A stretch of 64,000 nucleotides of DNA from Stegostoma tigrinum (lineage: Eukaryota), in NCBI RefSeq assembly GCF_030684315.1, contig NC_081393.1:14503479-14567478 (forward strand). Direction: 5' to 3'. The notes below the pieces were generated by a model. The model was not told the origin of the DNA. It ran no database searches and saw only the letters and a program-made list of their open reading frames with translations. Below, piece after piece: positions 1 to 63,335 of this stretch (position 1 is the stretch's first letter; each line of letters begins with the position of its first letter). A program made the position numbers and the translations under genes.

Positions 1-1411
1 GTGTATAGGGACTGGACATCCGTGGTGATGAAAATGACGTGTTGGGGACCAGGGAATTGGAAGTTCTGGAGGAGGTGAAGAGCGTGGGTGGTGTCACAGA
101 CGTAGGTGGGGAGTTCCTGGATCAAGGGGGAGAAAATGGAGTCCAGATAGGTGGAGATGAGTTCGGTGGGGCAGCAGCAGGCGGAGACAATAGGTCGACC
201 AGGGCAGGCGGATTTGTGGATTTTGGGAAGGAAAACTCCCACTTCCTACAGACTAAGGGGCTAACTGAGGAGACATTCCACTCCCGCACATCCCAGATGT
301 CCTCGTTCTTCAAGGGCTGCAACATCACCCCCGCAGTGCTCGAGAGTGTCCTCGACCGTGTCTCCGACATTTACCACACCTCATCCCTCACACCCCACCC
401 TCGCAATAATCACCAAAAGAGAATCCCCCTAGTCCTCACATACCACCCTACCAACCTCTGGATACAACGCATCATCCTCCGACGCTTCCGCCATCTACAA
501 TCCAACCCCACCACTAAAGACATTTTTCCCACCCCACCCCAACTTTGTCTGCCTTCCGGAGAGACCACTCTCTCCATGACTCCCTTGTCTGCTCCACGCT
601 CACCTCCAAACCCACCACACCCGACACTTTCCCCTGCAACCGCAGGAAGTGCTACACCTGCTCCAACACCGCCTCCCTCACCCACATCCCAGGACCCAAG
701 ATGACATTCCACATCAAGCAGATGTCCACCTGCACATCCGCTAATGTGGTATATTGCATCTGCTGTACATGGTGTGGCTTCCTCTGCATTGGGGAAACCA
801 AACGGAGGCTTGGGGAGTGCTTTGCAGAACACCTCTGCTCAGTTCGCAGTAAACAACTGCACCTCCCAGTCACAAACTATTTCAACTCCTCCTCCCATTC
901 CTCAGACGACATGTCCATCATGGGCCTCCTGCAGTGCCATAATGGTACCAGCCCTAGGTTGCAGGGACAGCAACTCATATTCCACTTGGGAACCCTGCAG
1001 CCCAATGGTATCAATGTAGATTTCACCAGCTTCAAAATCTCCCCTCCCCCCACTGCATCCCAAAACCAGCCCAGCTTGTCCCTGCCTCCCTAACCTGTTC
1101 TTGCTCTCACCGATCCCCTCCTCCCACCTCAAGCCGCACCTCCATTTCCTACCTACTAACCTCATCCCGCCCCCTTGACCTCTCCATCCTCGCTGGACTG
1201 ACCTATCCCCTCCCTACCTCTACTCTCCTCTCCACCCATCATCGGTCCTCCTCCCCCTCTCTCCCTATTTATTCCAGTTCCCTCTCTGATGAAGGGTCTA
1301 GGCCCGAAACGTCAGCTTTTGTGCTCCTGAGATGCTGCTTGGCCTGCTGTGTTCCTCCAGCTCCACACTTTGTTACCTCGGATTCTCTAGCATCTGCAGT
1401 TCTCATTATCT
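1..1411 (+). mobile_element. Penelope-like element (family 1), 3' part with GIY-YIG endonuclease, frameshifted, with inverted 5' segment
   Basis: ORF 545-1093: FPCNRRKCYTC...NVVYCICCTWCGFLCIGETKRRLGECFAEH...LGTLQPNGIN (Cys linker plus GIY-YIG); RT thumb RIPLVLTYHPTN upstream. About 1-230 is inverted element sequence. 3' terminal repeat with hammerhead-like core at 1286-1313. Confidence 0.88.
1286..1313 (+). ncRNA. Minimal hammerhead-ribozyme-like motif in PLE terminal repeat
   Basis: CTGATGA-A-GGGT(CTAG)GCCC-GAAA-C-GTC; palindromic ACGT in place of helix III; predicted cleavage after C1313; helix I only about 2 bp. Confidence 0.6.
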
Positions 1412-2001
1412 TTGAGCGAAACTATTTAACCTTCGTAACAATCATGTCAACAAGCAGCTTTAAAATGTATCATTGTACAGAGTAGTTTTACAGTTTATTT
1501 TTCATTAGAATTCTAAAATCTGCATTTGTTTTAAATCGAGAAACTAAGGTGAACCGTAAAGAACTAAAGTCGCAGCAAAAAACAAAAAAGAAAGCAACAC
1601 CTCACAGGACGAAATGCATGATACCATTTGCTTTTTCGAAGCCGAGAATTCTACAAGCGTCTGAGAAATTTAGTAAATTCCCATTGGTATACAAATTTGG
1701 CGTTGAGAAAGATACGGTGGAAGAAAACGGTGCCATGTGTATCGGCTTTAACACGATGGGCACAAGGAAACGAGCGGACTACGCACTTCAAAATATGTCT
1801 CGCACAATCCCCAAGATTTTCACATTTATCCGCTTAATTCGCACCGTTTCCTATTGTTCAAAATAGGCACCTTTTTAAATGATCATTCCATTCCTTTTCA
1901 AATAAAAACACTTGTATTATTCTCTTTAAACTAGTGCGATTAACCTATAATTCACGTGATAGTCAATTTTATATTTCTGAATTTTCCTTACGAAGCCCTA
2001 C

Positions 2002-2305
2002 CAATGTTGCCCTCCACTGAAATCCTGGTCACTGCCCGACTTTTACTGTGAAGTTCAACAGCCACAGTTCTGGAGCAAACGCGTTTCCGAGCAGCTTCTG
2101 TTCCCATCATCAGCTCAACCTGATCGCGCCGCTTCCAGGGAGAGTTCACGGTGAAAGCCAACCTCCGTCCCCGGGTTTGTAAAACCTTCTCTGGGTCAGG
2201 AAATAAACTCGGCAAGCAGCGATCAAACCCGTCTCTGTGTAGCATTCGGCATTGCGGAAAATTCACGCGTGTCAGTCCCGTTAGAGATCTGAAGTGCAGA
2301 GGCAT
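2002..2305 (-). CDS. DGUOK: Deoxynucleoside kinase (DGUOK/DCK family) first coding exon; rest of gene lies left of the window
   Basis: Open frame ending ...MMGTEAARKRVCSRTVAVELHSKSRAVTRISVEGNI+G|GTAGGG. The P-loop start (I-S-[IV]-EGNI) is split by a phase-1 intron, as in vertebrate DCK/DGUOK exon 1. In-frame ATGs at 2305, 2245, 2110, 2107. An Arg-rich, acid-free N-terminus favours mitochondrial DGUOK, but DCK/DCK2 is not excluded. Confidence 0.6.
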
Positions 2306-2700
2306 TTTAACTGCGCTCTGACAAGTGTTGCTGCACACATAATGCTGCAGATCATGTTCTCGTCCACGATCGCTAGCTGCGTGAACGACTCCGCCAAAGC
2401 ACAGAGCTGTTCGATCACTTCGCTTCCTCTATGCTGGAAACGACCTCTTCACATAGGTGAAGCAGTTCCGGGTTAATGCAAATGATAATGTTATTTTACA
2501 GCCTCCGTCTTCAATTAACAGGTTGGATTTACATCTGAAGAGGATTTAAAATGGTTGACTGCGTCAACGCGCGCGAAAAAGCTAATTAAATATATAATTT
2601 TGAGTCAACAAGTTCTGTGAAAGTGCACGATCCCTTGACAGCTATCTTATTCTACGCCACCTTGGATCATTTGGTACAACCCCCTTTATGCCACCTTTAA
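2306..2700 (-). promoter_or_regulatory. CpG-rich promoter of the deoxynucleoside kinase gene
   Basis: CpG enrichment from about 1550 to 2700 in a CpG-depleted background; E2F-type TTTCGCGC at 2571-2578 (minus) next to TGACGCA; E-box TCACGTGA at 1952-1959 in intron 1. Confidence 0.6.
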
Positions 2701-2954
2701 GCGATTTCCAGGACTGCCCTTAGCCACAAACTTTTGCTTTTCAATCTCATCCGACAAAATGGCTTGAGATGTTGCAGCAAAGTTATGTTGAAGCAAAGTG
2801 TGACAATTAAGTGTATTGACATCCACTAACGTGGGTGAATTATTGCACTTAATCATTTAATATAACAATCATTGGAGAAATATCTCGTATGTTGAACACC
2901 ACAGCAAGTACAGGTTCTTTACAGACTCGGGTGGAGAAGTTAAAGTCAAGAACT

Positions 2955-4262
2955 GCCTTCATTGAGGTTGTTGACCTGCTCTCCGAGCTAGCTTTCTTTC
3001 GTTCAGACGTTTTGGCACCAGGCGAGGCCTCTGCTGAAGCAATGTTATTCTACTCTGCTTGGAATTGGTCAGCTTTTGTGCTCCTGAGATGCTGCTTGGC
3101 CTGCTGTGTTCATCCAGCTTCACGCTTTATTATCTTGGATTCTCCAGCATCTGCAGTTCCCGTTATCTCTGGAATTTATACTGCCTGGTTCACGATGGTG
3201 AGTAGTGCCATTTCCGCTTTTGATTTGTATGAGTTTGTACATAGGATCCAATTGTATATGTTTGTTGATAGCATTACAGGTTGAGAACCTTCCTATAGTA
3301 ATTCCTATGTGTGTCTAATGTTTGGCTTGGGCGACTATGGTTACATTCCCAGTTAAACTGATGGCCTTCATTGTCTGAATGTATTGAAATTAAGAAAAGT
3401 TTGTAGTGTCATTTTGCTGCTAGCTGATGTTCGTGTATTCTGATGGCTAGTTTCCTTCCTGTCTGTCCGATGTAATGTTTGACAGTTGTTGCATGGTATT
3501 TTGTAAACCATATTGGTTCTGCATGTTGTAGGAGTGGGGTCTTTAATCCTTGAGTGTTTGTCAGAGAGTGGCTGTAGGCTTGTGGGCTACAAACAGACAC
3601 GCACAGGAAACACAGAATTAGACCTCATATACAAACCCATACAGATCAAATCCTGAAAATGACACTACTCACCATAACGGACCGGATGGTATAAATTGCA
3701 AGTGGAGTAGACCAATGTCGTTTCATCGGAGGCCTCATGGATGAGGTTACCTCGCATGGTGACAGAACGCCTGAACAAAAACAAGGGTATGTTTGGCTGG
3801 GGGACTTGAGGCTGTTTTCATTAGAGAGAAGGTGGTTGAGAGGTGACTTAATTGAAACATAAAATAATCAGAGGGTTATATAGGGTGGATAGGAGGAGCC
3901 TTTTTCCTAGGATGGTGACAGCGAGCACGAGGGGGCATAGCTTTAAATTGAGGGGTGAAAGATATAGGACAGATGTCAGAGGTAGTTTCTTTACTCAGAG
4001 TAGTAAGGGAATGGAACGCTTTGCCTGTAAACGGTAGTAGATTCACCAACTTTAGGTACATTTAAGTTGTCATTGGATAAGCACATGGACATACATGGAA
4101 TAGTGTAGGTTAGATGGGCTTGAGATCGGTATGACAGGTTGGCACAACATCGAGGGCCGAAGGGCTTGTACTGTGCTGTAATGTTCTAAGTTCTATGCCA
4201 GCTCAGCAAGCAAGTCAACAACCTCAGCCACAACCTGAGCTACAAATCTTTGCTAACATTTC
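2955..4262. mobile_element. Penelope-like element (family 2) remnant with inverted terminal repeats, interrupted by a family-1 PLE end (about 3069-3170) and a CR1 fragment
   Basis: Minus-strand KHYIGQTGRKLAIRIHEHQLAAK (GIY-YIG second half). 2960-3010 is the reverse complement of 3768-3786 plus 4198-4228. Confidence 0.75.
3787..4197 (+). mobile_element. CR1 LINE 3' fragment
   Basis: LRGDLIETxKIIRGLYRVD...TRGHSFKL...FFTQRVV motif; tail TTCTAAGTTCTATG. Confidence 0.85.
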
Positions 4263-9444: not shown

Positions 9445-9545
9445 TTATGTTCGAACTTGGAATTTTCCAGCTTTTGTCATGTACTTGATGCCTTTAAATG
9501 GTTTATATTTCTCACCATACATGTCCAATCGATTTACCTTCAAAC
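9445..9545 (-). CDS. AP3M2: AP3M2 coding exon 8 (terminal)
   Basis: AG|(G)LKVNRLDMYGEKYKPFKGIKYMTKAGKFQVRT then TAA TAA; 101 nt. Exon lengths sum to 1257 nt = 418 aa plus stop. Confidence 0.97.
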
Positions 9546-10143
9546 CTGAGAGAAAATGCAACACAAATCAGTAAGAGGGTTTATTCGACTGAGAGAAGAC
9601 AATCTATCTCAAAAAGGCTTAGTCCATAGAACTAAAACTGTATTTTGTGGATGACAGCACGCAAAATGAAAGGGATCGAAAGAAATGGAGACTTCTGGCA
9701 GTTGTAAATAATCTGTATCTAGTTCCATATACCAGCAGAAAACTTATTTTCAGTTGCACTGCAGTCATAATAAGTGATCAGAAATCAAAATGTCACACAG
9801 CTGTCAAATGAAACGCTGTTCCGAGATTGGTACAGCATCATCCTGTACCTGTATCTAGGTATCTTTGCACCCAATATGGCACCATAATTGGCAGCTCTGT
9901 AAACTTTTAACTGCACTCAGGTGAGTACATGTGATAATAAACCCAATTCTAATTCAAATCAAAATGTTTTTCACTTTTCTAACCCATCACAAACGTAAGT
10001 AGAATGATTAATGTTGAAACCCACTGCAGAATGCCTAAAAAATTCCACTCCCATTCTTTTGTTCTTTATTTGCTTCAAGACAAAACATTAGCTACCTAAA
10101 GAAATTGCACAAGTATTTATTATTTATTTCTGTAATTTCTTAC

Positions 10144-10288
10144 CTGAAATTGCTAGTTGTTGTATTTTGAACTGGATATTAATATTGGGGTTCTCATCAG
10201 GCTTGGGTGTCCCTGCCTGCAGGCTCATGGAGCCTTTCAGGCTTGGCAGTTTCTGTGGGTTAATCTTCCCAATATCCCATGACAGTAT
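10144..10288 (-). CDS. AP3M2: AP3M2 coding exon 7
   Basis: AG|ILSWDIGKINPQKLPSLKGSMSLQAGTPKPDENPNINIQFKIQQLAIS(G)|GTAAGA; 145 nt. Confidence 0.96.
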
Positions 10289-10679
10289 CTGCAATAAGAA
10301 GTTTAGAACAAATAACTGCACTATTACGGTTTTAAAAATACTCAAATGACTAAATTTGCAGCATTGAAGAGTAAACAATGAAATTGGAAAGCAAAAACTG
10401 AATCAGTAAACATTTCAAAAAAATCCCTTTTTCCCAGTTCCCACAAGGCCTAAAGCATAATAGGTGTGTATGGAAGAAAACTGAATGGTTACATATTTGG
10501 AAAGAATAATGAGGAAAGGCAAGTGCAGGAATTGATAGAACAGGGGATGTACACAAATCTTTGAAGTTGGAAAGTCACCTTGAGAAGATTGTTAAACATA
10601 CTGGCATCAAATACCAAAAGAAGGAAGCTCTGCAAAAATTTGGTAATGCAGATTCAAATTCATCTGGCATTCACCATAT

Positions 10680-11630
10680 GCGACTCTTCATATTATAAAG
10701 CAGTCTGTGTTCATTTGTCATAAGCCTTGGACTGCTAAGTGCCAAGTAACATTCACAGTATGAGTGTGCCAGGCAACATCTGTCTCCAACAAGGCAATCT
10801 AACCAATGTCCCTTGATAGTCAATATCATTCCCATTGCTGAATCCACCATTGCAACATGCTGGGAGTCTCCACTGCCCAGAAACTCTACTTGCTTAGCTG
10901 TGTAAATATTGTAGCTACATAAGCAGGACACAGGCTAGCATTTTAGTGGCGATTAACTGACCTCCTGTCTCCCAAAGTCCATGCATCATCTACAAGGCAT
11001 ACGTCAGGAGTGTGACGGAATACTGTCACTTACTTGGATGGGTGCACAGCCAGCAAAAAACTCAAGAAGCTGGGCAGCATGCGGACAAAACGGCCTGCTT
11101 CATTGGGACCTTGAACAGTCTCTTCCTTCACCACCAAATGCACAACTGCAGCAATATATACCACCTACAAGCTGTGCTGCATTAATTCACAAAGGCTCCC
11201 TCAACAGCATCTTCCAAACCCCACAACTACTGCTATCTGGATGATGCTGCATGTGAATACCTCTGCCTGCAAGTTTCCTTCCAAGCCACTCAACATTCTG
11301 CCAAAGATCCTGATGAGGTACTGAGGAAGTCATTCCAGACTTCAAACATTAACTCTTTCTCTTCACGGATGTTGCCAAACCTGCTGAGTTTCTCCAGCAT
11401 TCTCTGCGTTTGTTTCAGATTTCCAGCATCTGCAGTATTTTGCTTTAAAAGTTACTCACCATACTGACTAGGAAATATATCCCCATTCCCTCAGTGTCCC
11501 TGAGTCAAAATCCTTAATCTCCCTGCCTAGCAGTTTTACAGACGCACATACACCAAATGGATTGCAGCAATTCAAGGCAGTACACCATCACGTTCTCAAC
11601 AAAGCTAACCTAGTACCATGCTCACATCCC
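10680..11630 (+). mobile_element. CR1/L2-superclade LINE 3' fragment, interrupted by a PLE family 3 end at about 11310-11445
   Basis: Homologous to 22150-24260 (e.g. CATCTACAAGGCA, CAAGCCACTCA-CATCCTGAC). Confidence 0.7.
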
Positions 11631-13344
11631 ATAAAGAATAACAAATAAGTCTCGTGTTCCTTTCTGGGATCTGTATGTTAGCAACAATGTCATGGTCTTG
11701 GAAAGGGTACAACAGAGATATACTAGAATTGAACTAAGGTGAAAACATTTTTTCTGGATGAAACAGTGGAAAGTTGTGGTTCTTCTCGAAAGAACCAAGA
11801 GTTTGACCAAAATCTTCAAAATCATGAAACATTGAGAGAATAAATGAAAAAAAAACTCATTTCTGTATCAGAAGTGTCAAGATTTAAGAAGCAGAAGATA
11901 CACGACTGAGCACAAACCAGAAGGATGACCATAAAAAAACTACTTTTATGCAACAAATTTTGATGGGAAAGGGACTGTCTGAAAAAGGAGGTGCATGCAG
12001 ATGAAAAAGCAAAATCGGATAAAATAACGGCAAGGAAAATTGGTGAGGTACAGAGGAAGACTAAGGAGTGGGATTAATTAGCCAGTCTACCAAAAGCTAA
12101 CATGACCATGTTAAGTTGAATGGCCTCTTTCTGTGTTACATCATTCTTTTATTGATTACAATTACTACAAATGAAACATCTCCTGATTCACTTTTTATAT
12201 TGCGTCAAGGTTTCAAATTCAAGACCGATATTTTCCACAATGTTTTGTGGTGGTTTGTAGCAATAGCAGGGGCCAATTTTTCCCAATCAAGTCTGCAACT
12301 GTACTTCACCACATCCACTTATTGGCTCCAAAGATCTACAACTAATCCACAACCAATTATTAGCTTTTATAAATGGTTTAACTTGCTATTTCCCACGCAT
12401 AACTTGCTCAATGGTACATCACGGTTCAATTCCGTTTTTGCTTCGTGTTCCATGTTTCCATGCCATCCATTCTCGATTTGTTAAACTATATTGCTCCTCA
12501 ATACTTAAGACAATTACTTAAAAGCTGCTAAAAACCATTTTAAGAAATATAATTATTGTAGTCCACACTTTCAGAATGTGAAAAATCCTCGAAGAGAAAC
12601 ATTATACCCATTGTGCAGAATTCTTAAAATCAAAACTACTTGATGTTGATTCCCATTCTTTGGGCAAATAAAGAACAGTGAGACCCAAAATATTGTTCTG
12701 GATGAAAATATAATATTTAACAAGAAATACAATTCCAACTACCTAATATTTCCCACTTGGCTGCTTTTCAAAGTCATCACATTTCCTATTCAATTATTAC
12801 ACATACAGAACATTTTCAAAATCTGTTGAACTCCATTCGCAACAATGGATTTACAAGGACTAACGACAAATGAAGAGGTGATGATCAGTGTTTACAAGGT
12901 TAGTTTGGCCACATTTAGGGCAGTGTGTGGTGTTTTTGGAGAGAAAAACAAGAGAGAGAGTGTTGTATTATTCAGGCAATGTACAATTGAGAGGATCCAA
13001 TTGCAATGAAAACCTGGAGAAAATAAACCCATCTTCAATGGAATGAACAAAGACTGGGGGCGGCACAGGGAGAGCTTAGAATAGAAAGCCTCAAAAGAGT
13101 TAGAAGGACTTTGAGAAATTAAAAACAGAAAATTAATTTCTACCAGTTCAGTAATCATTAATGAAAGAAGAGAAAATAAGTATCAGACCTCCATTTATCA
13201 AGGAGGAGATCAGGAAGGAATTCTTTTCATACAAAAGGGTCATAAGAATTTGGAATGCATGTTAATTATTTTAGTATATGGAACTGATGGGTATTGTTGG
13301 ATGTGGTACTGGGATCATCGATGATGGGGCTAGCTGCAAGACAG

Positions 13345-13578
13345 TGAAATAGCTCCACAGAGGCCAGTTTCCTGTCATCAAATTGCCCTTCATTTACACG
13401 TGGAGAGTCCGTGACACTGATCCAGCTTCCTCAGAGCCAAGTGTCAGATGAAACAGAATGTCCAATATTCCTGCTTATATTGGTCAGGCAGGGTTCCCTA
13501 ACTAGACCAGATTAGCAGCCCCAATCAGGAACTCATATTCTATGAGGTTCAGTTGACTGACCTTGTACAATTACGACA
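13345..13578 (-). mobile_element. Probable solo LTR (degenerate second copy at about 5365-5560)
   Basis: TG...CA termini, AATATAAG TATA-like box on minus, clear similarity between the two copies; no TSD visible. Confidence 0.45.
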
Positions 13579-14224
13579 GAGTCAGCAGGGATACTGGGAT
13601 AATTGTCAGCATGCACAGTTGCATTCTCTCAATCAACCTACTTTGGAAGAAAAGGAATTGTGTTTCATTTCGTCCCAAGTCATCTGGCTTGGATCCATTT
13701 AGCATGTATCATGAGACTTGTAAACATGAAAGTAAGTGACCTTTCAAGTTGTATTTAAGGAAGAAAATAACGCTGTATGAATTGTATTGTTTCATAATCA
13801 GCCTTGCAAAAAAAAACTAGCTTTCAGCCTTTCCAGAGGTGCATCAAGTTGCTACATTTTCGCATTAATCTTGAATGAACTTTGTCATCAAAAATTTGGA
13901 CTGGTAATTAACAGTATCAACACCTTTTCATCAGAATTCACCACATTAGTCGGCTATGGACCAAGTGCATGTAAATGGGGTCAGTGTAATTTGGTGTTTG
14001 TTGGTCCACGTAGAAATGATGGGCTGAAGGGCCTGTTTCTATGCTGTACGACTAATGACAATGGCTAAAATATTTTTTCAAATAAGAAAACTAAATGGAT
14101 TAACTCAAACAATATATTTGGACATAAATAATTTTTATCTCAGGTTTATTCTTGAATCAAATTTGTTACATGCTCATTGGTGTGCCATCGACAGTCATTA
14201 CTGGCAGTGCCAATTTCCAATTAC

Positions 14225-14432
14225 CTTGGTGACTGGGTCAAAGGTGTAGTTCCCTTGAGTGGAGCTGAGATTCATGTTCAAAACCACCTTTGGCAGCTGG
14301 CTGGTCACTACTGTACCTTCGATCATCTTTCCCATTGTTTGTTTGGGGCCAACGGTAATTTCAAACCGCCCCATGGAGCTGCCATCCCGGAAGGTAATGT
14401 TGTGCTTTACATAGACAGGAATGGCAACCAAG
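14225..14432 (-). CDS. AP3M2: AP3M2 coding exon 6
   Basis: AG|(N)LVAIPVYVKHNITFRDGSSMGRFEITVGPKQTMGK...FDPVTK|GTAATT; 208 nt. Confidence 0.96.
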
Positions 14433-14839
14433 CTGTAAGGCAATAAATACTGATAACGTATTTGTATCTATTCAGACTGCTGAGATATGGTGGAAGAGTG
14501 AAAAGCCATTAGTACAGTCAGCATTTCTTAAATACTTTACTTTTTGCTATTTCCTCCACTCACCCTTTGTTGAAGAAATCCACAGGGAGATGGCTGATTG
14601 ATGCTTTCTCTGGTCATGATGATTTTAGCACAAGGTTAAGGTCTTGAAACTGACAAGAATAGAAAGGCCCAGATTTGGATGGCATGCACCTGCAGCTAGT
14701 AAGACATCTGACCTGAGGCGGCATCACTGCCAAATCCAATTCAGACTACACAAAGCCTGCTGTTACTCAAACGGAAGCAAAAAATTCTTACATACTCAAT
14801 GTCAGCATCACGTGCCGAGGGAAATAAGTTTAACATTCC

Positions 14840-16712
14840 AGATCAATTCTTGGAGGACATAGGCCAAAGTGAGCATTGGCCCCTGGAGAGAATTAAGCTG
14901 GGGAATGGGGAAGCAGGAAATGGCAGAGGAGTTGAACAAATTCTTCGTATTAGTCCGTGCATCAGCTATTAGCAATTATGAAATAATCAAGGGACAAAAG
15001 GAAAAGAAGAAATAAATAACGACTGACTATCACTTCAGGGAAGATGCGAGGGAAACTAAATCAGGTCAAAGACTGATAAAACTTTGGACCTTGGACATGC
15101 ATCCTAAGATGGAAGAGGAAATAGCAATAGAGAAAGTGTATGTTCTTTTCTTACGGTCTACCAGTAGTCATCTTCCAAGAATCCTTAGATACTGGAAAAG
15201 TCCCAGAGATTAGAAAACTGCTATTGAAAAACCTTTTCTCAAACAAGAGAACGAAACGAAAACCAAAAGAAAAACAAAAACCAATTAGTAACTCTTGGCC
15301 AGTTAGATAGAGTCTGTTATTGGGAAAATGTTAGACATTAAAGGACATAAGAGCAGAGCATTTATAGACGCATCACATGATCAAGCAGGGTCAGCACGGC
15401 ATCATGAGGGAGAAATCATGCCTAACAAATTTATGAGAATTTGAAGAGGTAACAAACAGGATACATACAGGGGAAGCAACATATGTATTATACTGGGATT
15501 TTGAGAAGGCATTTGACAAGGTGCCACAGAGTTGGCTACTTGATGAGACAACAGGTCATGGTGTTGGAGGTACTAGTGCAGGATAGAGGATTGGCTAACA
15601 AATAGTTGAAAAAGTTGGGATAAGGGGGCATTTTCAGGATGATAAGCTGTAACTAGTAGATTGTCACAGGAGTCTGTGCTGGCCAACATTCCCTCTAAGC
15701 TGTGTGGCATCGTGTGCATATTGCTACTCTCAATATCAGCGCTCATCAGGCTGCTTGTAGGAACGTCATCCGGTTCCTGAATCTGCAATGTGCCATGCAT
15801 GGACTTCAGCCACCTGCGCTGCAAGACTGGTGCTGTTGAGACAATTATTTAGAGTATACTCATGGCTTGGATGAGCAAAGTGAATGTAGAAGTGAAATGT
15901 ATAAGACCAAACAGTGGGTGGAAAGGCAAGTGGTGAGAATGACAGTCTGCAGAGAGACAGGTTTAATGAATAGGCAAAAACGTAGCTGATAGAATCTAAA
16001 TGTAGGAAAATCTAGGTGATGCACTTAGACTGGAAGAACAGAGGAACTGAAGGTTATTGAAATGGAGAAAGACTGCAGAAAGCTAGAGGGATTTGGGAAT
16101 CACATATCTTAAAAAGCTATCAACCAAGGTCGGTAATACAGAGGGCACATGTAATGCTGACTTTCATTTCAACGTGAATGAACTGTCAAAATAGGACGGA
16201 CGGTCTTGCTTAAACTATACAAGACACTATTCCGAGAACAGCTAGAATACTGTGAACAGTTGTGAGTCCCTAATCTAAGAAAAGGTATACTGGTATTGAA
16301 GGCAGTTCAGAGAAGGTTCATTAGACATTTACTAGGTACAGAGGAACTGTCTTATGAGGAAATGTTGAGTAGGTTGGGCATATACTGAGTGGAGTTCAGA
16401 AGAATGAGAACTGAGCTCATTGAATTATATAAAACACTTACAGAACTCGACAGAGTGGATGTAGAAAGGTCATTTACCCTTGTAGCAAGGTCAAGGACTG
16501 GAGAAAATCTCAGAATAAAGTGGTCTCCAATTTAAGACCAAGATGAGGAGAATTTTTTCTGAGGGTAATGAATTTGTACATTTCTTTTCTGTGAATGGCT
16601 GTTGAGGCTGGGTTGTTAAGTACATTTAAGGCTGAGATAGACAGATTTTTTTTAATCAGAAAGGGATTCAAGGGTTATCAGGAAAAGGCATGAAAGTGGT
16701 GTTGACGATTAT
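14840..16712 (+). mobile_element. Decayed CR1 LINE ORF2 and 3' end
   Basis: DFEKAFDKVP RT motif near 15500 and LEYCEQLxVP; many stops; a short unrelated insertion at about 15680-15830. Confidence 0.8.
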
Positions 16713-17055
16713 CATAGAACATAGAACAGTACAGCACAGAACAGGCCCTTCAGCCCACGATGTTGTGCCAACCATTGATCCTCATGTATGCCCCCTCAAA
16801 TTTCTGTGACCATATGCATGTCCAGCAGTCTCTTAAATGTCCCCAATAACCTTGCTTCCACAACTGCTGCTGGCAACGCATTCCATGCTCTCACAACTCT
16901 GTGTAAAGAACCCGCATCTGACATCCCCTCTATACTTTCCACCAACCAGCTTAAAACTATGACCCCTCGTGTTAGCCTTTTCTGCCCTGGGAAATAGTCT
17001 CTGGCTATCAACTCTATCTATGCCTCTCATTATCTTGTATACCTCAATCAGATCA
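16713..17055 (-). mobile_element. CR1 LINE 3' fragment
   Basis: DLIEVYKIMRGIDRVDSQRLFP...TRGHSFKL; tail CATAGAACATAGAAC on plus. Confidence 0.85.
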
Positions 17056-20000
17056 TCTACGTTCTCACTGAATGTCAGGGAAGACTTGATGCTCAAACAT
17101 CTTACAGATTTATGGACCTTTCATTGCAACTACTCCATAAACATTAACTCTTATTATCTATAGGTATTGCTGAATTGCTAAGTATTTCCAGCTATTTTTG
17201 TTTTAGATTTCAAATGTGCAGTATTTTGCTCCAGTGGACTGTTGCTTTTAGTTTTAAAAACTGCTACACAACAGCTAGCTGGTGTTTTGAACAGTTCACT
17301 TACAGGAATGGCTAAACATTGTTTAAAAATTTCAGCATTTGCCTTTTGAGTGTCATTTGTGAGATGTGGGCATTGTAGGCTGGCCTGCATTTATTGCCCT
17401 TCCCTAGTTGCCCTTGAGAAGGCAGTGATGAGTTGCTGTCTTGAACTGCTCTAGTCCATGTATTCAAATATCCATTGAGGTATAAAGCAATTATCTTCAA
17501 ACTTCACATTCTGCATCATAAGAAATGATACCAGCTTTAGCCACTCAACTTCTGGGTTGGTGCCAATATTACATTTCACTTTTGACCTAACATTAGAACC
17601 TCAAGTTGACAACATTTCTTAACCTTGTAGCAGAGGAGTTACAAGTTGGGTTTCCTTTCAATAATTCCAGCATCAGACAGTTCTACTGAGCAGGAATGAA
17701 AGAAGGTCAATTGGCATGATGGAACCATGTGCGTCAAAACTAATAATTCCATTTTCCCATTTCATAGCAGAATAAAGATGGGATGGGATGTTACATTTCC
17801 TAAAAATTTATCCTAACAATGGTAAATACTCAGTCAAATTCATTCAAAGGTGATGATATAAAGCAAACAGCAGAGAGAAACAACAATTCTGTTAGCATAT
17901 CCAGAAAAGTATCAAAATGCTAAACTCTACCTGTCAGCTTTATTCAGCGCCCCCGACTCCGGAACCATCTAAATTACCAGTATAATTGCGAAAACATAGC
18001 AATTGCTCCATTGCAAGACATTCTGCAGTTCAAAAATGTTCACACTGAAAGTTTCAATGTCGTCTTTGTATAGATATTTCAAGCATTTAAGAAAATCAAA
18101 GCGCTGGTCTTCATGTGAAAATGAAGGAGATTCACAAGAGGTCTGTAATTTAACCTCTCCTATTTCACCCTCAATCTTAAAAACGTGCTTGTATCATTTG
18201 TAAATATTTTCTAATAACCCAGCAAGACCTACAAATAATATGCTAGTTTTCGATTCCCACTTCTCAGTCGCTGGAATGGAAGAGAAAACCAACATGCAGA
18301 TAGGGAAAAATTATGATCTTTTAATCCGTAAAATGAGATTTACAAGGCCAACAATTCTCAAAGACTAGGACTGAAGTGGAATATGTTTTCATTTGTTGGA
18401 TAAATCCAGCAGTTACAAGTTTTGGACTTGCAGTTAAATAGAATACAGAATTCCAAATAATTTGATCTAAATACAGTCAAATTACTGGCACATTGAAAGA
18501 AAACTGAATATTTGACTTGGAGGTTCTAATCCAATGTTAAAATTAATTTAAATTGAAGTCAGATGAGAAGAACAGAAGAATCAGGAAGTTAACAGGTAAC
18601 TCCCAGTATATTCCAGAATTGTCATGCATTGATACAGAGGGAACATATGAATCTGAATAAAACACATTGCAGTACATACTCAAGTGTAAGGAGATTAAAA
18701 GTTCCTTCTACTAAAAGTTTTAACAATGTTTATTTCTAAAATATCACCAGTAAATCCTGGCACTTCAACTTTATATAATCCGTATTTATGAACTGAATGT
18801 AGAGATCATCTCTATTGTAGAAAAAGTTTGCAAATTATACAGATAGATAGTTAGGAAAGCCACCTTTGAGAAGGATACAAACAAACAGTCTGTGAAGGAG
18901 TACAGATAGGTTAAGGGAAACAGTTGGTGATGGATTATTATGTGGGAAAATCTGACAACATTTGTTCAGCAGGGAAAATAAAACACGAAAACCAGAATAC
19001 ATTTAACCACAGCAACTACAGGTATGCATGTACATGATTCACAGAAAAGCAGGTGTTTAGGAAGAGCAAGTGATTTGAAAGGCAAAGCGTTGGCTTTTAT
19101 TGGAAAGGGAAAAGAATGTGAAAGCAGCAAAGTGCTTTTAATACTACAGTATATTGATGGTGGAATTTGAATTCAATAATTAAAGAGAGTCTGGAATTAA
19201 GAATCTACTGATCACCATGAAATCATTGCCGATTGTCGGAAAACCCATCGAGTTTACTATTGTCCTTCAGGGAAGGAAATCTGCCATCCTTACCTGGTCT
19301 GGCTTACACCTGACTCCAGACCTACAGCAATGTGGTTGACTCTCAGTTGCCCTCTGAAATGGCCTAGCAAGCCGCTCAGTTCTACCAATTGCCACAAAGT
19401 CTCAAATGGCATTGACCTAGGCGCTGGAAGAGAACAGCAGAAACAGCCCTGTCAACCCTGCAAAGTCCTCCTCATTAACATCTGGGGGTTATTGCCAAAA
19501 TTGGGAGAGCTGCGTCACGGATAAGTTAAGCAACAGCCTGACATAGTCACACTCAGTGTCCCACCCGTAGAACAGACCCAGCAGAGATGGTGGCACAGTA
19601 GTATTCAGTCAGGACGGTGTTTCTCTGGCAGTCCTCATTGACTGTGGGACCATAAGGTAAACATGGGCAAGGAAATTTCCTGCTGATTACCAATACTGTC
19701 CTCCCTCAGTTGATGAATCAGTATTCCTCAATGTTGAGCAACACCTAGAGGAAGCACCGAGGATGGCAAGGGCACAAAATGTACTCTGGGTGGGGGATTT
19801 CAATGTCCACTACCAAGAGTGGCTCGGCAGCAGTACTACTGATCGAGCTGGTCGGGTCCTAAAGCACGTTGCTGCTAGACGGTCTACTGCAGGTGGTGAG
19901 GGAACCGACAAGAGGGAAGAACATAAATGACCTCATTCTTACCAATCTGCCATCTGCAGATGCCTCAGTCCATGACGGTATCAGTAAGAGACCATCGCAC

Positions 20001-20233
20001 AGTCTTTGTGGAGACAAAGTCTCGCCTTCACATTAAAAATAGTGCCACACAACATGGTGGAAGTTATCACCGTGCTAAATGGGACAGACTTTGCATAGGT
20101 CTAGCAACTCAACGTTGGACATCCATGAAGTGCTGCAGGCCAGCAACAGCAGGAGAATTGTACTCCAGCACAATCTAATTTCATGGCCCAGCATTTCCCC
20201 TGCTCAACCATTACCATCAAGCCAGGGCATCAA

Positions 20234-32420: not shown

Positions 32421-32592
32421 ATCACTAATATTTGGGAGAAGTGGACCTTATCAACTATACAGGAGTAGAAACTGCTTGGCCGATTGCTCCTCATTTGTAA
32501 ACTATGCCCAGGATATACGAAGACGATATCATAAAACATGATAAATTCCAACTGTTTTGGTAGTTTCTCTTGTTATGTGCCATAATACATAC

Positions 32593-39886: not shown

Positions 39887-40065
39887 AGATTAGACAAATT
39901 AGGTCTTTTATATTCTCGAATTTAGAAGGTCAAGGGGTGAAATAATTGATGTTTTCATAATATTAACGAGGAAAGACATAGTCAATAAAGATAATTAATT
40001 CCACTGATTGAAAATTCTAGAACCAGGAGGCTTAGTCTAAGAATTTAGGCCAGGCCATTTACGAG

Positions 40066-43118: not shown

Positions 43119-43349
43119 GTATCAGAGATAATGGGAACTGCAGATGCTGGAGAATCAGAGATAACAGTGTGGAGCTGGATGAACATAGCTGGCCAAGCAG
43201 AATCTTAGGAGCACAAAAACTGACATTTCAGGCCTAGACCCTTCATCGTTTTTTTCAGATGAAGAGTCTAGGCCAGAAACGTCAGCTTTTGTGCTCCTAA
43301 GATGCTGCTTGGCTGCTGTGTTCATCCAGCTCCACACTTTGTTGTTATC
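43119..43349. mobile_element. Palindromic mini-PLE with 14-bp TSD
   Basis: TTAAATAATAATTT at 43105-43118 and 43350-43363; two inverted degenerate hammerhead cores in the centre. Confidence 0.88.
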
Positions 43350-43757
43350 TTAAATAATAATTTTACCTTTTATTTTTCTGACTAAAAGGGGCATTTTCAC
43401 AGAAGGTGGCTCATGTGTGAAATGAACTGCCAGAGCAATTGGTAGATGCAGGTACAGTTGCAACATTTAAAAGAGATTTGGACAGGTACTTGAATAGGGA
43501 AGGTTTAAGAGGGATATGGGCCAAACTCAGGCAAATGGGCTAAATTTAGTTTGGGAAAACATGGACAGGTTGGACCGAAGGGTCTGTTTCCCTGACTGTT
43601 TCAATGACTCTGACAGCCTCACCCTTATCCATATAATATTGCATCTGCCACATTCTGATTCATTCTCCTAGGGCATCAGTACCCATCTAAGTCTTTCTCT
43701 CCTCCTCACAGTCTGCTTTCCCACCTATTTTAGTATTATCTGCAAATTTTAGAATAG

Positions 43758-44101
43758 CATAGAATCCTTACTGTGTGGAAAGAAGCCATTTGGCCTAACA
43801 AGTTCACACCAGCTCTCTGAACAGCATCCTATCCAGATTCACCTCCTTCACTCCCCTACCCTATCCCTGTAACCTTGCATTTCCTACAGCTAACCTACAC
43901 ATCCCTGGACACAATGGGCAATTTAGCATTACCAATTAACCTAACCTGCACATCTTTGGACTGTGGGAGGAAACAGGAACACCCAGAGGAAACTCAAATA
44001 CAGGGAGAGAATGTGTAAACTCCACACAGGCAGTCACCTGGGGCAGGAATTGAAACCTGGTGCTGTGAGGCTGCAGTGCTAACCACTGAGCCACCGTACC
44101 A
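43758..44101 (-). mobile_element. HE1-type V-SINE
   Basis: Same head and V-domain as 40066-40381. Confidence 0.85.
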
Positions 44102-45190
44102 GCCCAAATTTTACTATGTTACACTTTGTCCTTGCTTGCAGATCATTTACATATATTGGAAGTAGTTGAGGTGTGAGAACTGAACCCTGCAGCACCTCAC
44201 TGGTTACAGTTTGCCATCCACAGAAGGGACGATTTATTGCGATCTTCTGCTTTCTGTCAATCAGCTTTATCCAAACCAATACTCTTCACTCCCTGGGATC
44301 TAACCTTCTGGATCAGTCTTTCATACGGCATCCGATTCAGGAGTGTATCCATCAAAACATTCCAGCTTTTCAAATAGTGGCAATTCTGTATCCACACCAG
44401 AATGGTAGCTATCATAGAAGAGTCAATGTGTGAAGATTTATAGTCAAAAATATCATAAATAATCTTGGACAGGGACCTCTTACAAATTCTTTTTCCAGCA
44501 TTTGTTCACCAAAGAACTACTTCACAAACTTTGAGAACACAATTTGTTCAGTGAAATCTTAACTGTTGTACTTCAGCATATAGCAAGAGCCGACTGTTAT
44601 CAAAATGCTGCAGGCAAACATTAACCATACAGACATTGCTTGAATGGTGTATTTCTCACAGACAGCTCACCACTATAAATCAAAAATCAGTTTATGACAT
44701 GTTCATAAGATTCACACACAAAAGGAAAAGTCATTGCTTTTCACACTGATGTGACAAAGAGAATAAAATAGACATTATTTACAGGAGCTTATGGTTACTA
44801 TCACAATGTAAGTGAATGTACAACAGGCTTAATCTGGAATCTCTCATTCCTAGAGTTGAAGACGGGCCCATATTAGACTCAGGAGAAACACTAATGAACC
44901 AGAACTTCACGTTGTTGCTTCAAAGATTTTGGTCAGCTGTGGGCAGCAATACTAAAGTAAGAAAAGAAGGGATTCAGGAGCACCGGATACCTTGTATCGT
45001 AAGTTTTACAATGAAATGGCAACTTCTCATTTAGAATGTAACCTCAAACCATTTTTATGGTTATTGATTTGTCTTACATTTGGATTGTGATATGCACCCT
45101 TATAATTTTTAGTTGAACACCTTCCACTCTTTCGGATCAACTGAAATACCCTATCCAAGAAAAAATATGATTTAATAATTTCCCACTGAC

Positions 45191-45463
45191 CTGAAAGGTG
45201 TCGACGACCCTATGGAGGAACTCGATGACAAATAGCGGCGGCACCTCACTCTGGATCACAGCCACGAAGAAGATACGGTCACGGTAGACGCTGATTAAGA
45301 AATGATGCGGAGTCGGGATGACCGGAGGCACGTTCTCCGACTCGTTTGCCTTTTCTTGCGCCTCAAAGAAATAATCGCAAACCGACCTGCTCACCACACT
45401 CTTCCAATGCTTCTCCAGGAAGATGTCCCCAGAGGAGTTAATGAGGAACAAACTGTGGATCAT
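45191..45463 (-). CDS. AP3M2: AP-3 complex subunit mu-2, coding exon 1
   Basis: ATG at 45463; translates MIHSLFLINSSGDIFLEKHWKSVVSRSVCDYFFEAQ...FLHRVVDTFQ; 273 nt; donor GTCAGT. INSS, VVSRS and RVVDTF are mu3B-type residues rather than mu3A. Confidence 0.97.
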
Positions 45464-45989: not shown

Positions 45990-46210
45990 GAGATAATGGG
46001 AACTGCAGATGCTGGAGAATCCAAGATAACAAAGTGTGAAGCTGGATGAACACAGCAGGCCAAGCAGCATCTTAGGAGCACAAAAGCTGACGTTTCGGGC
46101 CTAGACCCTTCATCAGAAACGCTGAAGGGTCTCGGCCCGAAACGTCAGCTTTCCTGCTTCTGAGATGCTGCTTGGCCTGCTGTGTTCGTTCAACTCTACA
46201 CTTTGTTACC
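45990..46210. mobile_element. Palindromic mini-PLE with 11-bp TSD (half-copy also at about 45815-45873)
   Basis: ACAGAATGCAT at 45979-45989 and 46211-46221; inverted arms. Confidence 0.88.
46089..46116 (-). ncRNA. Minimal hammerhead-ribozyme-like motif (intact core)
   Basis: Reverse complement CTGATGAAGGGTCTAGGCCCGAAACGTC inside the palindromic mini-PLE. Confidence 0.58.
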
Positions 46211-47314
46211 ACAGAATGCATTGACATTCTCCACATTCCTTAGTGATGAGGCTACCAGGTAAAGAGAACATGCTTTGCTTTACCCCCTTGCTGTAAAATA
46301 AAGGTACAACGATATGGTTGGCATATTTTTTGCAAATCAATTTCCCCTGTCACTCGTCAATTTGTTACGCCCCTGATCGTGCGCTCCTGGTCGCAGAACA
46401 AATCAACAGCATGTTTGAAAAATAAGAAAACCAAAGCAAAATACAGCGAATGCTGGAAACCTGAAATGTAAATAAAACATTGCTGGAAAAATTCAGTAAT
46501 TAAGGCAGCATCTGCGAGGAGAAAGGCACTTTAAATCAAGATTTCGTTTTAGAAAATTTCTTCAGCTCTGATCGAACATCATTTTGTTGGGCTACGTGAA
46601 CTCTTTGCAGATATCGGCTGACCTGCCAAGTCTTTCCATCGTTTTTCCGTACCTAGAAGTTCTAGAGAATGGCAAGTAGGCTTTTCATTCATTGTTCACA
46701 CAGCCCATAACGACTTCGACTGTTCAATGAAAATAAACGTTATTAGGGATCGGCACTGCTGGAACAAGTTAATTGTTCACTCTAGAAAAAACGAAAGCAC
46801 TCGATTCAGTACTGCTTAAAATGGGCAAAGCATTGTGTAACACAGAAAGTCAGGTATCTCGAACGGGTTGACGAAAAGTTAATTCTTTTTTTCCGAAAGT
46901 TTTGCTGCTTCCGGGCAGTGCACACTTTTGAGATCAAGCAAGGTGGCACAATTGTTTGCTGTATTCCCTATTAGATCACCCGCACTACCGCCGACAAAAG
47001 ACCTCTGCCAGACCAATGTTCACGCTCTGATATGTGAAGTCGGGTCAGTAGGTGCAACTTTCCAGTGACTCTGTGATGGGTTGATGGTTGCAGAGAGGTT
47101 TTCAGGATTCTGGTGCTCACCTTCCAGCTGATACACCTGCCAAAGTAATGACTGGAAATGGGCAATTGTTCAGGAAGGCATCAATTAAACATAAGGTACC
47201 ACTCTAGATTAGATATTGAAGCTCCACAGACCCCTCCAACACTTACAAATTGTCCATAAAATTTTATGCAAGTTAGCCCACTCAAGCCTGAGACCTGTCG
47301 TCAGTGATTGCCTC

Positions 47315-49090: not shown

Positions 49091-50479
49091 CTGTCATTGC
49101 TGAGTTCCACTGTGCCAACCTTTCCCTCAATAACTTAACCATTACTCTTCCCTCTATTCCTCTGTATCCCACATCTCCCGTACATCTCAGTGCTGCCATT
49201 CACCCCACTCTAGTCTCCTAACCATTTCCCTGTGTTTCACTTTTTCTATGTCTGATCACTCCCCACTCCTCTATCCAGAAGACATATTCTTGGTGCATCC
49301 TTTGCCCTTTATGCCTCTGTGCCCCATTGTCTTTAGCTGTTTCCCTTAATTGACTAACTATCTCATGGAGCTAACTTGCACAACCCTGCTTAACCCTGGA
49401 TGAAAGTTAAAATTCAAATAGTAAAGAAACTAGTTCAATATTAAATGTGAAATACAAACAAAATTATATTCTTAGAAATAGATTAAGAACTCCTTTACTT
49501 GTCAAACTGACTGCACTCTGTGTTCAGAATCACACTCATACAATATCTGAGACCTGGAGATGGCAATATTGTAGGGTCTCCAAGCCTGTTTCTTTTCAAA
49601 TTCACCAATACATAAAAACAACCTGCTCACAACGTGATGAAAAGTACTTAACTAAATGGCATGCAGAAAGCCCACCTTTTTCAGAGAGTCCTGCAGTGAT
49701 GCTAAGATATAATTTGGGCTGTTGATTTACTCACACCACAGTTCAGGAATGAAAACATATTCGTTCTCAGGCATGCACTGTGTGTATGTAATGACAAGCC
49801 AATTACATGATTAAAAAAACATGATTGTTAAAGCAGCTCTGATGAAGAGTCATCTAAAACTGAAATACTGTCTTGTTCTATCTCCATGGATGCTGCCTGA
49901 CCCGCTGTGATTTCCAGCATTTTTTGTTTTCAGTAAGAATGACATTTTGAGCATAAACATGGGAAGAAGTAATCCTCTTTAACTAAACCCAAGAAAAGGT
50001 TGCTGCTGTATTTCAAATTGTCACAAACTCAAGGGTTAAAAACCCCCAGCTTCATTTAAAAAAGACACATTACAAAATGGAAGGAAAGTGAGCAAGGTTT
50101 CAGCTCTCTTTCATTTCTGTCTGCGACAAATGGCCTCCACACAATTTACAATCTGCCTGGGGTGACTGTTTGCTTCATCAATGATCAAATGTTTGCTGGT
50201 GTGAATGTTAAATACCACTTTGATGGACCTCTCCTTAAACTCAATCACTTATGTGTCAAAATTAAACTGCCCACCATAGGCATTCATGATCTACCAGCCA
50301 ATACTCCACTCCCTATTTTTGAGCGGATCTGGAAAATGTTGAGCCGTTCTCATAGTTTGGCAACTCTGTCACTTGAAAGGACACCTTTGATGATAAGATC
50401 CAACAAAGAGTCAGCTGCTCCAGCTCAACCTTCAATCAACTATGGCAGCAAGCATTTGATAATAAAGACCTCTACAAGT

Positions 50480-54200: not shown

Positions 54201-54675
54201 TAATTTAAAATTTTTTTTTAACATGCTCCTGTGATTAATTGATCTATAGACTTTCCCAAGAGTCGCTTCTGCTTTGGGGATCTAAGTTACAAACACTGCA
54301 ACACGTTGGGGAGGGGAGAGAACACCCCTTTAATTAATTATCTTGAATTCACTCAGTGGTCAGGGACAAGAGGATGTGACTATACCTCATACCTCCCAAT
54401 CAATTGCAACTTCCTATTGCAAGTTTGCTTTGTGCTTTTATCTTTGCTGATGCAGTGAAATTGTAATAAATTAAATTCTGATTACCCTAAATCTTGCTTG
54501 TGTCGAAGTTGTCTGCCATTCTTGCTGATAAAGTAGCATTTCCAATGGAACAATGCCTGCAATCAGCCGATGTTCCAAGCTAGTAACTCCAGATTAGCTG
54601 AATTTATGCTTCCAAATGGGCAGCAATTATTATGTTATTTCCTATAACATAAATAAACTGGGCATGGATATTGTG

Positions 54676-54912
54676 ATCAGAGATAATGGGAACTGCAGAG
54701 GCTGGAGAATCCAAGATAACGAAGTGTGGAGCTGGATGAACACAGCAGGCCAAGCAGCATCTTAGGAGCACAAAAGCTGACGTTCCGGGCCTCGACCCTT
54801 CAGCAGAGAGCTATCATCCTCTAAATGAAGGGTCTAGGCCCGAAACGTCAGCTTTAGTGCTCCTAAGATGCTGCTTGGCCTGCTGTGTTCATCCAGCTCC
54901 ACACTTTGTTAT
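54676..54912. mobile_element. Palindromic mini-PLE with perfect 18-bp TSD
   Basis: CTGGGCATGGATATTGTG at 54658-54675 and 54913-54930; inverted arms with two degenerate hammerhead cores. Confidence 0.9.
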
Positions 54913-55929
54913 CTGGGCATGGATATTGTGGTCCTGAAGTACATATCAGACATTTATTAGGACTAATTACTGTATATAAACATTATGTTGCGTGGAAACA
55001 TAAGCATTTGAGCAAATATAAAGTGATGAAGCTTTCCAGGTGTCCAGGCACAGTGGGAAATCAATTTGGGTAAGCACCTTATTAGATTGAGGTATTCAAG
55101 CAGATAATAAACTAGGAAATAAAATAAACCGAACTTAATGAGAGCAAAATAATTGGTTTTAAGATACACTTTGGATTTACAAGCCAAATATCATATTGCA
55201 AAGTCAAGAAACATATTTGGTTCAAAAAGACAAGTGAACTTTTTACAAAGTAATTCCATGATTATACAATTAGTCTGTTAGTGACAATGAGCCTGTTCTG
55301 CAGAAATTCAAGCAAAAAATGAATGAGTCTTACTTAATATGGTGTGTTCTTTTCTTGACAGGAGTTTTAAAATTAAACTAAAGGAATGAAAAGAACAAAA
55401 TTCAATGATTTGGTGGTGGAAAAGCCTTTTAGTTGTATGTAAGAGTACTTCTGGAGGTGAAAAAAGGAAAGAAAAAGATTTTGTGGTTTGATCATTACTA
55501 TTTATAGTGTAGGGTCTTTATTGACGTACCCTGTAGGGAAACATTAACTGCAGCTTTTGGCTTTACATGCTTCTGCAGATTCAAAAGTTGCTGTCAGTTT
55601 CCGAAGGATAATGACAGCACATACAGACATATGGACACACAGTTTCAGCATCACCACGAAAATCTTGATTGAAGTCTGTTCGCGTCCTTAGTACCTGTCT
55701 CAATAAATTGAATATGTTGCTCCCAGATTACAGAGACACAAGCGGGACCGTAGTTGAGATGGTCATCTCATAACCATTCATAAGTGCACTTAGTGGTGAA
55801 GATTATATCTGACTTTCTGAAGGTTGTTGAAGCTGCTCTTCTCTGCATTGCAATGGAGTTAGAAGTGGTGCACAGAGCTATGCCAATTCGTACTTATGAG
55901 CTGATGATCAAAGACAAAGAGTAGGCTGA

Positions 55930-62646: not shown

Positions 62647-62660
62647 CCACCAGGGGGTGC
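62647..62660 (+). promoter_or_regulatory. CTCF-binding motif candidate
   Basis: CCACCAGGGGGTGC, one mismatch from the canonical CCACCAGGGGGCGC core, in unique sequence. Confidence 0.5.
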
Positions 62661-62934
62661 TAATGCACCAAGTGCAGCTCCCGTTCAAGCAAGTGTCAAC
62701 GTCAGAGGAATGTTCAGAAATGAAAATGAGCAGTATTGCTTCGCTGAAAAAGCTTGAGACATGCAAAGGATCCAGAATAGTTGGCATTAGCTTAGTATGG
62801 AACTCAGCTGAAGGTCGATCACTTATTTTCTGTGAAAGAATATTTTCAAATTCTGACATTTTCAAATTACACTGTACAACAAAATGTTTTCTTTTATATG
62901 GTTTGACATTTCTCTGTGTGGATGCAGCACTGAC

Positions 62935-62986
62935 CTGTGACATGATGACTCTAGTTTGATTCATACTCATGTTGTTCCAAACAGGT
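62935..62986 (-). CDS. Putative penultimate exon of unidentified upstream gene
   Basis: Acceptor TATTTTCACAG, 52 nt (x)PVWNNMSMNQTRVIMSQ, donor GTCAGT; ends in phase 0, compatible with the exon at 58591-58719. Confidence 0.45.
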
Positions 62987-63109
62987 CTGTGAAAATAGTT
63001 GAAGATCTGAACTGTCCTGTTCGCCCAAAACCCAAGTATTCACTGACAGAGATAATGCCCCAGTTCAGCAAAGCCTCAAATTAAGAAATCTAAATAAAAA
63101 ATTGAAGGA

Positions 63110-63335
63110 TCTGTGGATCCTGGAAATCAGAAACACAAACGGAACCTGCCGGAAAAACTCAGCAGGCCTAGCAGCAACTGTGGAGACAAAATCAGAGTTA
63201 ATGTTTTGAGGCCAGTGATCCTTCTTCAGAGCAAGGGTCTGAAGAAAAATTACTGGACCCAAGACGTGAACTCTGATTTCTCTCCACTGATGCTGCTGGA
63301 CCTGCTGAGTTTTTCGATCAGTTTCTGTTTTTGTT
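63110..63335. repeat. Palindromic PLE family 3 element (other copies at about 46435-46650 and 49835-49935)
   Basis: Inverted arms GAAAAACTCAGCAGG / CCTGCTGAGTTTTTC; central CTGAAGA on both strands (63223-63229 minus, 63239-63245 plus). Confidence 0.75.

Follow-up and report, generated by a model that had tools for sequence, protein, structure and literature searches.

Probable minimal type-I hammerhead motifs in the terminal repeat of a Penelope-like element of the shark Stegostoma tigrinum, present mostly as broken copies

We analyzed a 64,000-nucleotide (nt) stretch of the Stegostoma tigrinum genome (NC_081393.1, positions 14,503,479 to 14,567,478; here called the window), which holds an adaptor-complex mu-subunit gene that is probably AP-3 mu by its N terminus, the likely first exon of a deoxynucleoside-kinase-like gene, and fragments of Penelope-like elements (PLEs) that we call families 1, 2, and 3 (Table 1). 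Judged by its sequence, the motif of family 1 is very probably a minimal type-I hammerhead ribozyme (HHR) lying in the terminal repeat of a shark PLE; the copies dispersed through the window are truncated ends, for the most part damaged, that are likely inert. An earlier note on this DNA had proposed, in addition, that helix II covaries across three families and that potentially active ribozymes are seeded in host pre-mRNA; neither proposal was supported.

Table 1. Features of the window, in window coordinates (strand "." marks inverted pairs; ORF, open reading frame; RT, reverse transcriptase; EN, endonuclease; UTR, untranslated region; TSD, target-site duplication)
Position	Strand	Feature
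237..1415	+	3' part of a family-1 PLE: remnant of the GIY-YIG/linker ORF, broken, up to 1090; 3' UTR rich in pyrimidines; motif; long tail
1286..1313	+	Intact family-1 motif (putative minimal type-I hammerhead); sense to PLE ORF, antisense to kinase-like host gene
3000..3600	-	Family-2 remnant: PLE-type endonuclease pieces (3346-3477), decayed motif (about 3000-3045); split by the insert at 3068
3068..3171	+	Tail-only family-1 insertion, 7-bp TSD; begins at GTC, 3 nt before the predicted cut
3616..3790	+	Inverted arm of family 2 with a damaged core and a 6-bp stem (3746-3763)
9445..45463	-	Adaptor-complex mu-subunit gene of the host; ATG 45463, stop 9445; three exons match Pfam PF00928
11325..11450	+	Stump of family 3, motif decayed, beyond the earlier note's list
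20230..20978	.	Inverted pair of family 1, head to head, in AP-3 mu intron; long tail on the minus arm, none on the plus arm; own TSD
20332..20359	-	Intact family-1 motif in sense orientation to the host pre-mRNA; full pairing with the 20893 arm predicted
20893..20920	+	Damaged family-1 motif; changes at G10.1 and position 15.2
22286..23644	+	Family-1 fragment: RT/EN remnant, damaged motif (23552-23579), TTCC subfamily tail
39540..39825	-	Family-2 remnant: endonuclease C terminus, decayed motif (about 39597-39640)
43117..43350	.	TSD-bounded palindromic family-1 stump, centered at the core start; both motifs damaged
45990..46210	.	TSD-bounded palindromic stump; minus arm with intact 46089-46116, plus arm with other-subfamily variants
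46433..46565	-	Decayed family-3 stump, beyond the earlier note's list
49839..49930	+	Family-3 stump; CUGAUGA retained, stem and 3' core decayed
54671..54920	.	Palindromic stump of family 1 between TSDs; motifs of both arms damaged
63097..63335	.	Family-3 inverted pair centered at the core start; both motifs (63223/63239) decayed

The exact 28-nt family-1 core is present at 1286-1313(+), 20332-20359(-), and 46089-46116(-), as had been reported, and the damaged copies listed with them were recovered in an ungapped table of ten family-1 cores. Three of the ten are intact; the other seven (20893+, 23552+, 43249-, 43256+, 46119+, 54806-, and 54822+) are damaged or truncated within the core. At up to 3 mismatches, seven matches to the core were found in the 64-kb window, against 0.00 expected (100 shuffles). 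We searched both strands with a minimal type-I descriptor (CUGANGA, helix II of at least 3 bp, GAAA, a pair, UH, and helix I of at least 2 bp). Across the whole window it matched exactly the three intact family-1 cores, and the same three when the core was relaxed; its chance rate was a mean of 0.02 matches per shuffled 64 kb (200 dinucleotide shuffles), and the 336-nt element end, shuffled 20,000 times, never matched it. The earlier estimate was one motif per 5 kb; remnants number about 18 (1 per 3.6 kb), but intact cores only 1 per 21 kb. An antisense hammerhead was also considered, and the descriptor found none on either strand of the window. Matches to microRNA-type Rfam families were fold-back artifacts of palindromes, all below the gathering score. 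Viral contigs yielded no further copies; metagenome contigs yielded four matches, none of which blastn related to the window, and all four look like chance.

The intact cores carry the CUGANGA and GAAA boxes with the UH triplet. An extra A follows A9 and leads into a 4-bp helix II (GGGU/GCCC) closed by G10.1-C11.1; positions 15.2 to 16.2 form the palindrome ACGU with no loop III, helix I is 2 bp, and a U-rich 5' flank precedes CUGANGAH. All features of the published minimal-hammerhead (min-HHR) consensus are thus present.

The carrier of this motif has the organization of an endonuclease-bearing (EN+) PLE. P0001, its best relative, carries RVT_1 (E 9e-5) and then a C-terminal GIY-YIG domain (E 9e-5) by Pfam, which is the domain order of EN+ PLEs, and aligned by tblastn to 237-1090 (68 to 73% identity) and 22286-23342. 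The frame at 518-1090 matches proteins named from Rhincodon typus (77% identity) and Stegostoma tigrinum (73%), and a Stegostoma protein reads through the same motif region. Pfam placed no GIY-YIG domain in any of the 265 window frames of at least 62 amino acids (aa). The motif at 1286 is on the sense strand, about 200 nt 3' of the end of the RT/GIY-YIG ORF, which places it in the pseudo-long terminal repeat (pLTR), sense to the RT-EN ORF. The 3' UTR (1133-1270; 20704-20860) contains TACTAAC, long pyrimidine tracts, and TTTCAG about 27 nt before the core, and so resembles a 3' splice site; in D. virilis Penelope, a published intron ends near helix I. The insertions at 20230-20978 and 22286-23644 sit inside a decayed long interspersed element (19661-24350, with endonuclease-RT Pfam matches). 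Within the ORF at 518-1093, the linker CNRRKCYTC (CX4CXXC) fits the pattern CX2-5CxxC before the endonuclease. Because this pattern defines the Neptune/Nematis type (PMC8557442), family 1 is likely a Neptune-type element.

Reports on this class of PLE hammerheads already cover thousands of copies from fish, coelacanth, and frog. Full-text searches of the literature gave no description of shark PLE hammerheads; Lünse et al. 2017, who reportedly observed dimer cleavage of PLE hammerheads, or Repbase/Dfam may list shark motifs. Min-HHRs were described in metazoan PLE terminal repeats, with thousands of solo copies, by Cervera and de la Peña in 2014 (PMC4209133), whose Table S1 and Fig. S3 alignment contain no cartilaginous fish. 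Family 1 shares with them the type-I topology, CUGANGA followed by H, G10.1-C11.1, GAAA, the palindromic 15.2-16.2, a short helix I, the terminal-repeat location, the solo copies, and the opposite-strand pairs 100 to 700 bp apart. It differs in the strong decoy hairpin predicted for it and in a helix I at the short end of the published range (2 to 6 bp), at which some rows of that study also lie; the Acropora Neptune row is very similar to family 1. PLE-derived non-LTR retrozymes with type-I HHRs have been reported in one chondrichthyan genome (bioRxiv 10.64898/2026.07.22.740005). They resemble family 1 in having a type-I HHR of PLE origin, but those retrozymes are tandem arrays, whereas the copies in the window are dispersed stumps or inverted pairs, and self-comparison of the window revealed no direct tandem of HHR units. 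As a ribozyme, the family-1 motif adds a cartilaginous-fish example to a known class and matters little.

The minimum-free-energy structure predicted for the isolated motif was a CUGAUG/CGUCAG hairpin (-11.4 kcal/mol, versus -1.8 to -3.6 for helices I and II), which bears out the earlier caveat about this hairpin and the 2-bp helix I. Naked motif RNA is thus predicted to prefer the inactive hairpin by 8 to 10 kcal/mol. The best predicted homodimer was an extended duplex (-38 kcal/mol), and the ACGU-paired form without helix I reached -13.3. In an 821-nt fold, 26 of the 28 positions of the core at 20359- paired with the 20893 arm and the probability of stem II was 0; the 46116- core was likewise predicted to fold with its partner arm. 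In PMC4209133, the min-HHR monomer did not cleave and the dimer cleaved at a low level, and in the Anolis element Poseidon PAc (Frangieh 2024, PMC11167929) cleavage occurred only with the PLE protein and was unnecessary for insertion in vitro. By analogy, cutting after GUC in the RNA of a family-1 master element would require a dimer, in which two ACGU palindromes would form helix III, and would probably also need the element's protein, given that the naked motif is predicted to fold into the hairpin. The earlier claim that these are minimal type-I hammerheads of PLE repeats that need dimerization is in this sense supported for family 1 and only plausible for families 2 and 3. The two 3' ends seen suggest that reverse transcription of a new copy begins about 65 or about 100 nt 3' of the cut site. 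It would usually terminate prematurely, in many cases where the ribozyme's 5' edge lies, and leave solo stumps and head-to-head palindromes with TSDs. The role of PLE hammerheads has been called unclear (PMC8557442).

The family-1 copies decay neutrally, as expected of dead copies. Among the ten copies, 4 of 86 core-box positions depart from the majority, against 16 of 270 tail positions (Fisher P = 0.79). None of the four helix-II pairs had a two-sided change among the family-1 window rows (alignment A1), and between families the stems are simply different; the proposed covariation of helix II is not supported by the window copies. We also compared the copy at 20200-20670 with contigs of X1 (organism A), X11 (organism B), and X20 (organism C) and with bisulfite reads of X21 (organism A). 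The matching records numbered 106,117, 20,829, 3,638, and 52,038, respectively; depth was not taken as copy number, and that of X21 is dominated by bisulfite conversion. Among 40 of 181 difference rows listed, none gave information on helix-II pairs, and 11 differences were at the level of lineages (majority in B or C, minority in A), with 9 in a 122-nt span around the motif and 0 in the 28-nt motif (P about 0.10), a count that the other rows could alter.

All four family-1 head-to-head pairs combine inverted pLTRs, a tail at one end, and a TSD. The two arms of each pair differ by about 35 nt in where they end, which defines two 3' ends. The long-tail arm is minus and the tail-less arm plus in 4/4 (20230, 43117, 45990, and 54671), for which the chance is 1 in 8. 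We rejected the idea that the palindromes form one family of miniature inverted-repeat transposable elements, since centers and TSDs differ in all four. Inverted pLTRs with a 30- to 40-bp tail are described for EN+ PLE insertions in PMC3846280 (Arkhipova 2013) and PMC8557442 (Craig 2021), and the window insertions agree with these in the head-to-head inverted 5'-truncated copy, the tail on a single arm, and the TSD around the whole insertion. They differ in that many consist of just two stumps of 90 to 135 nt centered on the ribozyme 5' edge. In PMC11167929 the tail is explained by two RT start sites. Family 1 resembles Poseidon PAc of that study in having two 3' ends, as putative RT start sites, that would set the tail, with the HHR upstream, and apparently also, here from sequence alone, in the extension of both target strands with uncut RNA as the template. 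Unlike Poseidon, family 1 has the CX2-5CxxC linker of Neptune/Nematis, and, unlike in Poseidon PAc, no ORF starts in its motif copies (stop after 13 codons).

Both 5' ends fall between -4 and +5 of C3 in three of the four family-1 pairs and in the family-3 pair 63223/63239, and six of the ten family-1 cores (three insertion events) begin within the same interval. Short copies and palindromes whose starts are no more than about 5 nt from that of the core contain the uncut site, so they would have been copied from uncut RNA. The tail-only copy at 3068 is nested in a family-2 PLE end; we considered it as a product of cleavage in vivo and rejected this, since it keeps GTC after its 7-bp TSD and starts 3 to 4 nt upstream of the cut. 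In the palindrome at 45990-46210, the plus arm has an adjacent two-base variant in common with 23554+, 7099-/7100+, and 5129+, as well as two further shared variants; the two-base variant makes up 3 to 5% of the depth in X1 and about 90% in X20. By these variants the arms belong to two subfamilies, which could reflect two RNA templates per insertion or later gene conversion; the self-priming model of PMC3846280 does not predict such arms. The other three pairs showed no clear mixed-arm pattern over the 79 columns compared. In our view, the more useful point than the ribozyme itself is that the very high-copy family 1 records intermediates of PLE insertion: palindrome 5' ends and arm haplotypes in sharks could test cut versus uncut template, and self-priming versus two templates, from an assembly alone.

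We confirmed the presence of the pieces earlier assigned to family 2 (the stem at 3746-3763 and a copy on the minus strand at about 39630) and to family 3 (at 49839 and at 63223/63239). The hammerhead cores claimed for them were not recovered: 0 of 3 family-2 and 0 of about 5 family-3 remnants pass the descriptor, even with the relaxed core. Family-2 copy 3746+ reads TGGATGA...AGAACGCC, with the triplet GCC instead of GUC; copy 39630- is without a CUGANGA box and also has GCC; the third, at about 3000-3045(-), retains GTC and has lost the 5' core. The helix-II stems of family 3 are broken. The three families are moreover not all distinct, because families 1 and 3 have a homologous tail (one pattern, 18 matches, 0 expected), which makes them sister families; on this evidence the window holds two lineages, one of them with two sister families, rather than three independent families. 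A hairpin in the shared tail (GCUG...CAGC), seen at 1314-1412 and in family-3 tails upstream of the presumed RT start sites, was too weak to claim (-4.1 kcal/mol; two-sided change in 3 of 10 pairs). The endonuclease-like pieces of family 2 (VYKIPC and YIGQTGR..R..EH), which resemble the PLE-type GIY-YIG motif, are not matched by P0001. P0005 and P0007, which were matched by a 44-aa family-2 piece, also match 3346-3477; a match of P0008 looked like a spurious repeat match and was ignored. Both family 2 and family 3 probably represent older PLEs in which the motif has decayed.

Several observations weigh against the hammerhead interpretation or its extension beyond family 1. The hammerhead families of Rfam gave no match in the window up to E = 10 and none above the gathering threshold. 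Two of the three family-2 copies have the triplet GCC, the 44-aa family-2 piece matched four unnamed proteins weakly (E 1e-4 to 4e-4), a word-index search returned no family-2 homologues, and family 3 has no ORF remnant within the window. Cross-lineage conservation of the 28-nt motif is suggestive only, and the window counts come from one 64-kb window.

The alternative that survives best, which we nevertheless consider doubtful, is that the motif owes its retention mainly to service as a structural landmark in the insertion reaction (an RNA 5' boundary, an RT stop, or a site of RNA-RNA pairing), with cutting rare or dispensable. This would fit the starts of six of ten family-1 cores and both family-3 pair arms at -4 to +5 of C3, the uncut site included. 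It would also fit the loose ends of the contig runs. Among the 24 of 1,425 rows listed, the tail-less 3' end (about 20266-20271) appeared in all three runs and the long-tail 3' end (20229) in X20, and the only 5'-side loose end with long unrelated flanks was 20363 (-4), with at least 475 contigs in X1 and 52 in X20 and no listed row in X11; none with such flanks was listed at the cut site. Six of 15 listed joints were opposite-strand, all within 20320-20363. Furthermore, Anolis HHR mutants were reported to insert normally in vitro, with no RNA ends at the cut site (PMC11167929). However, the listing covers 24 of the 1,425 rows, private changes of the reference copy, 10 and 20 nt from the cut site, lower the detection of a cut-site pile-up, TTTT microhomology with AT-rich targets could merge or sharpen ends at -4, and X21 joint positions are trimmed through bisulfite conversion. 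The boxes kept across PLEs are, in addition, exactly the catalytic ones. A few X1 contigs (joints 20360 to 20322) have a tandem duplication of about 39 nt spanning the whole motif, that is, natural adjacent hammerhead dimers at other sites in the genome.

A more specific proposal, in our judgment rather improbable, is that the shark palindromes are made from two RNA templates in a single insertion and that the hammerhead region is a dimerization or stop signal of the RNA, not chiefly a cutter. Each RT of a dimeric complex would prime on one cut target strand and copy uncut RNA to the hammerhead 5' edge, where the two RNAs would be held together and the cDNAs joined. The clustering of centers at -4 to +5 of the core and the mixed arms of one of the four TSD-bounded family-1 pairs led us to consider it; the self-complementary stem-loop II and CUGAUG/CGUCAG, with the predicted homodimer at -38 kcal/mol, are candidate dimer signals.

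We regard it as very improbable that the copies regulate host pre-mRNA by self-cleavage. In favor of this idea, the family is highly abundant (106,117 X1 contigs), and one intact core, 20359-, is sense in an AP-3 mu intron, the only one that is sense to a known host intron. That core, however, lies inside a 300-bp inverted repeat, in which it is predicted to be sequestered; the core at 1286+ is antisense to the kinase-like gene, and that at 46116- is in a palindrome that precedes the CCAAT/GC boxes of the presumed AP-3 mu promoter by about 0.5 kb. These positions speak against the intact cores as cutters of host RNA, and neutral decay with most cores broken speaks against the earlier picture of potentially active ribozymes seeded in host transcripts, as do the lack of excess conservation and the published min-HHR monomers that did not cleave (PMC4209133). 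A chance likeness in a repeated element is hardly credible, since, although Rfam gave no match, helix I is 2 bp, the predicted fold is inactive, and the three intact copies amount to a single evolutionary observation, no element-end shuffle in 20,000 matched and the motif is located where PLE hammerheads are published to be.

In the surrounding host sequence, no gene was identified between 47 and 64 kb, and no intact core lies there. The first exon of the kinase-like gene is presumably at about 2000-2350(-), where it ends in ISVEGNIG, a motif of such kinases, followed by GT. This exon falls within a CpG island, and another such island, at 45 to 47 kb, may be bidirectional. An AATAAA lies near 7257(-), and the small runs X5 and X6 contain 0.64 to 0.73 of the words of 7200-10400. 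A family-3 tail palindrome at 7749-7911, with arms of about 60 bp, may lie in the AP-3 mu 3' UTR, where it would be a possible double-stranded RNA or editing substrate.

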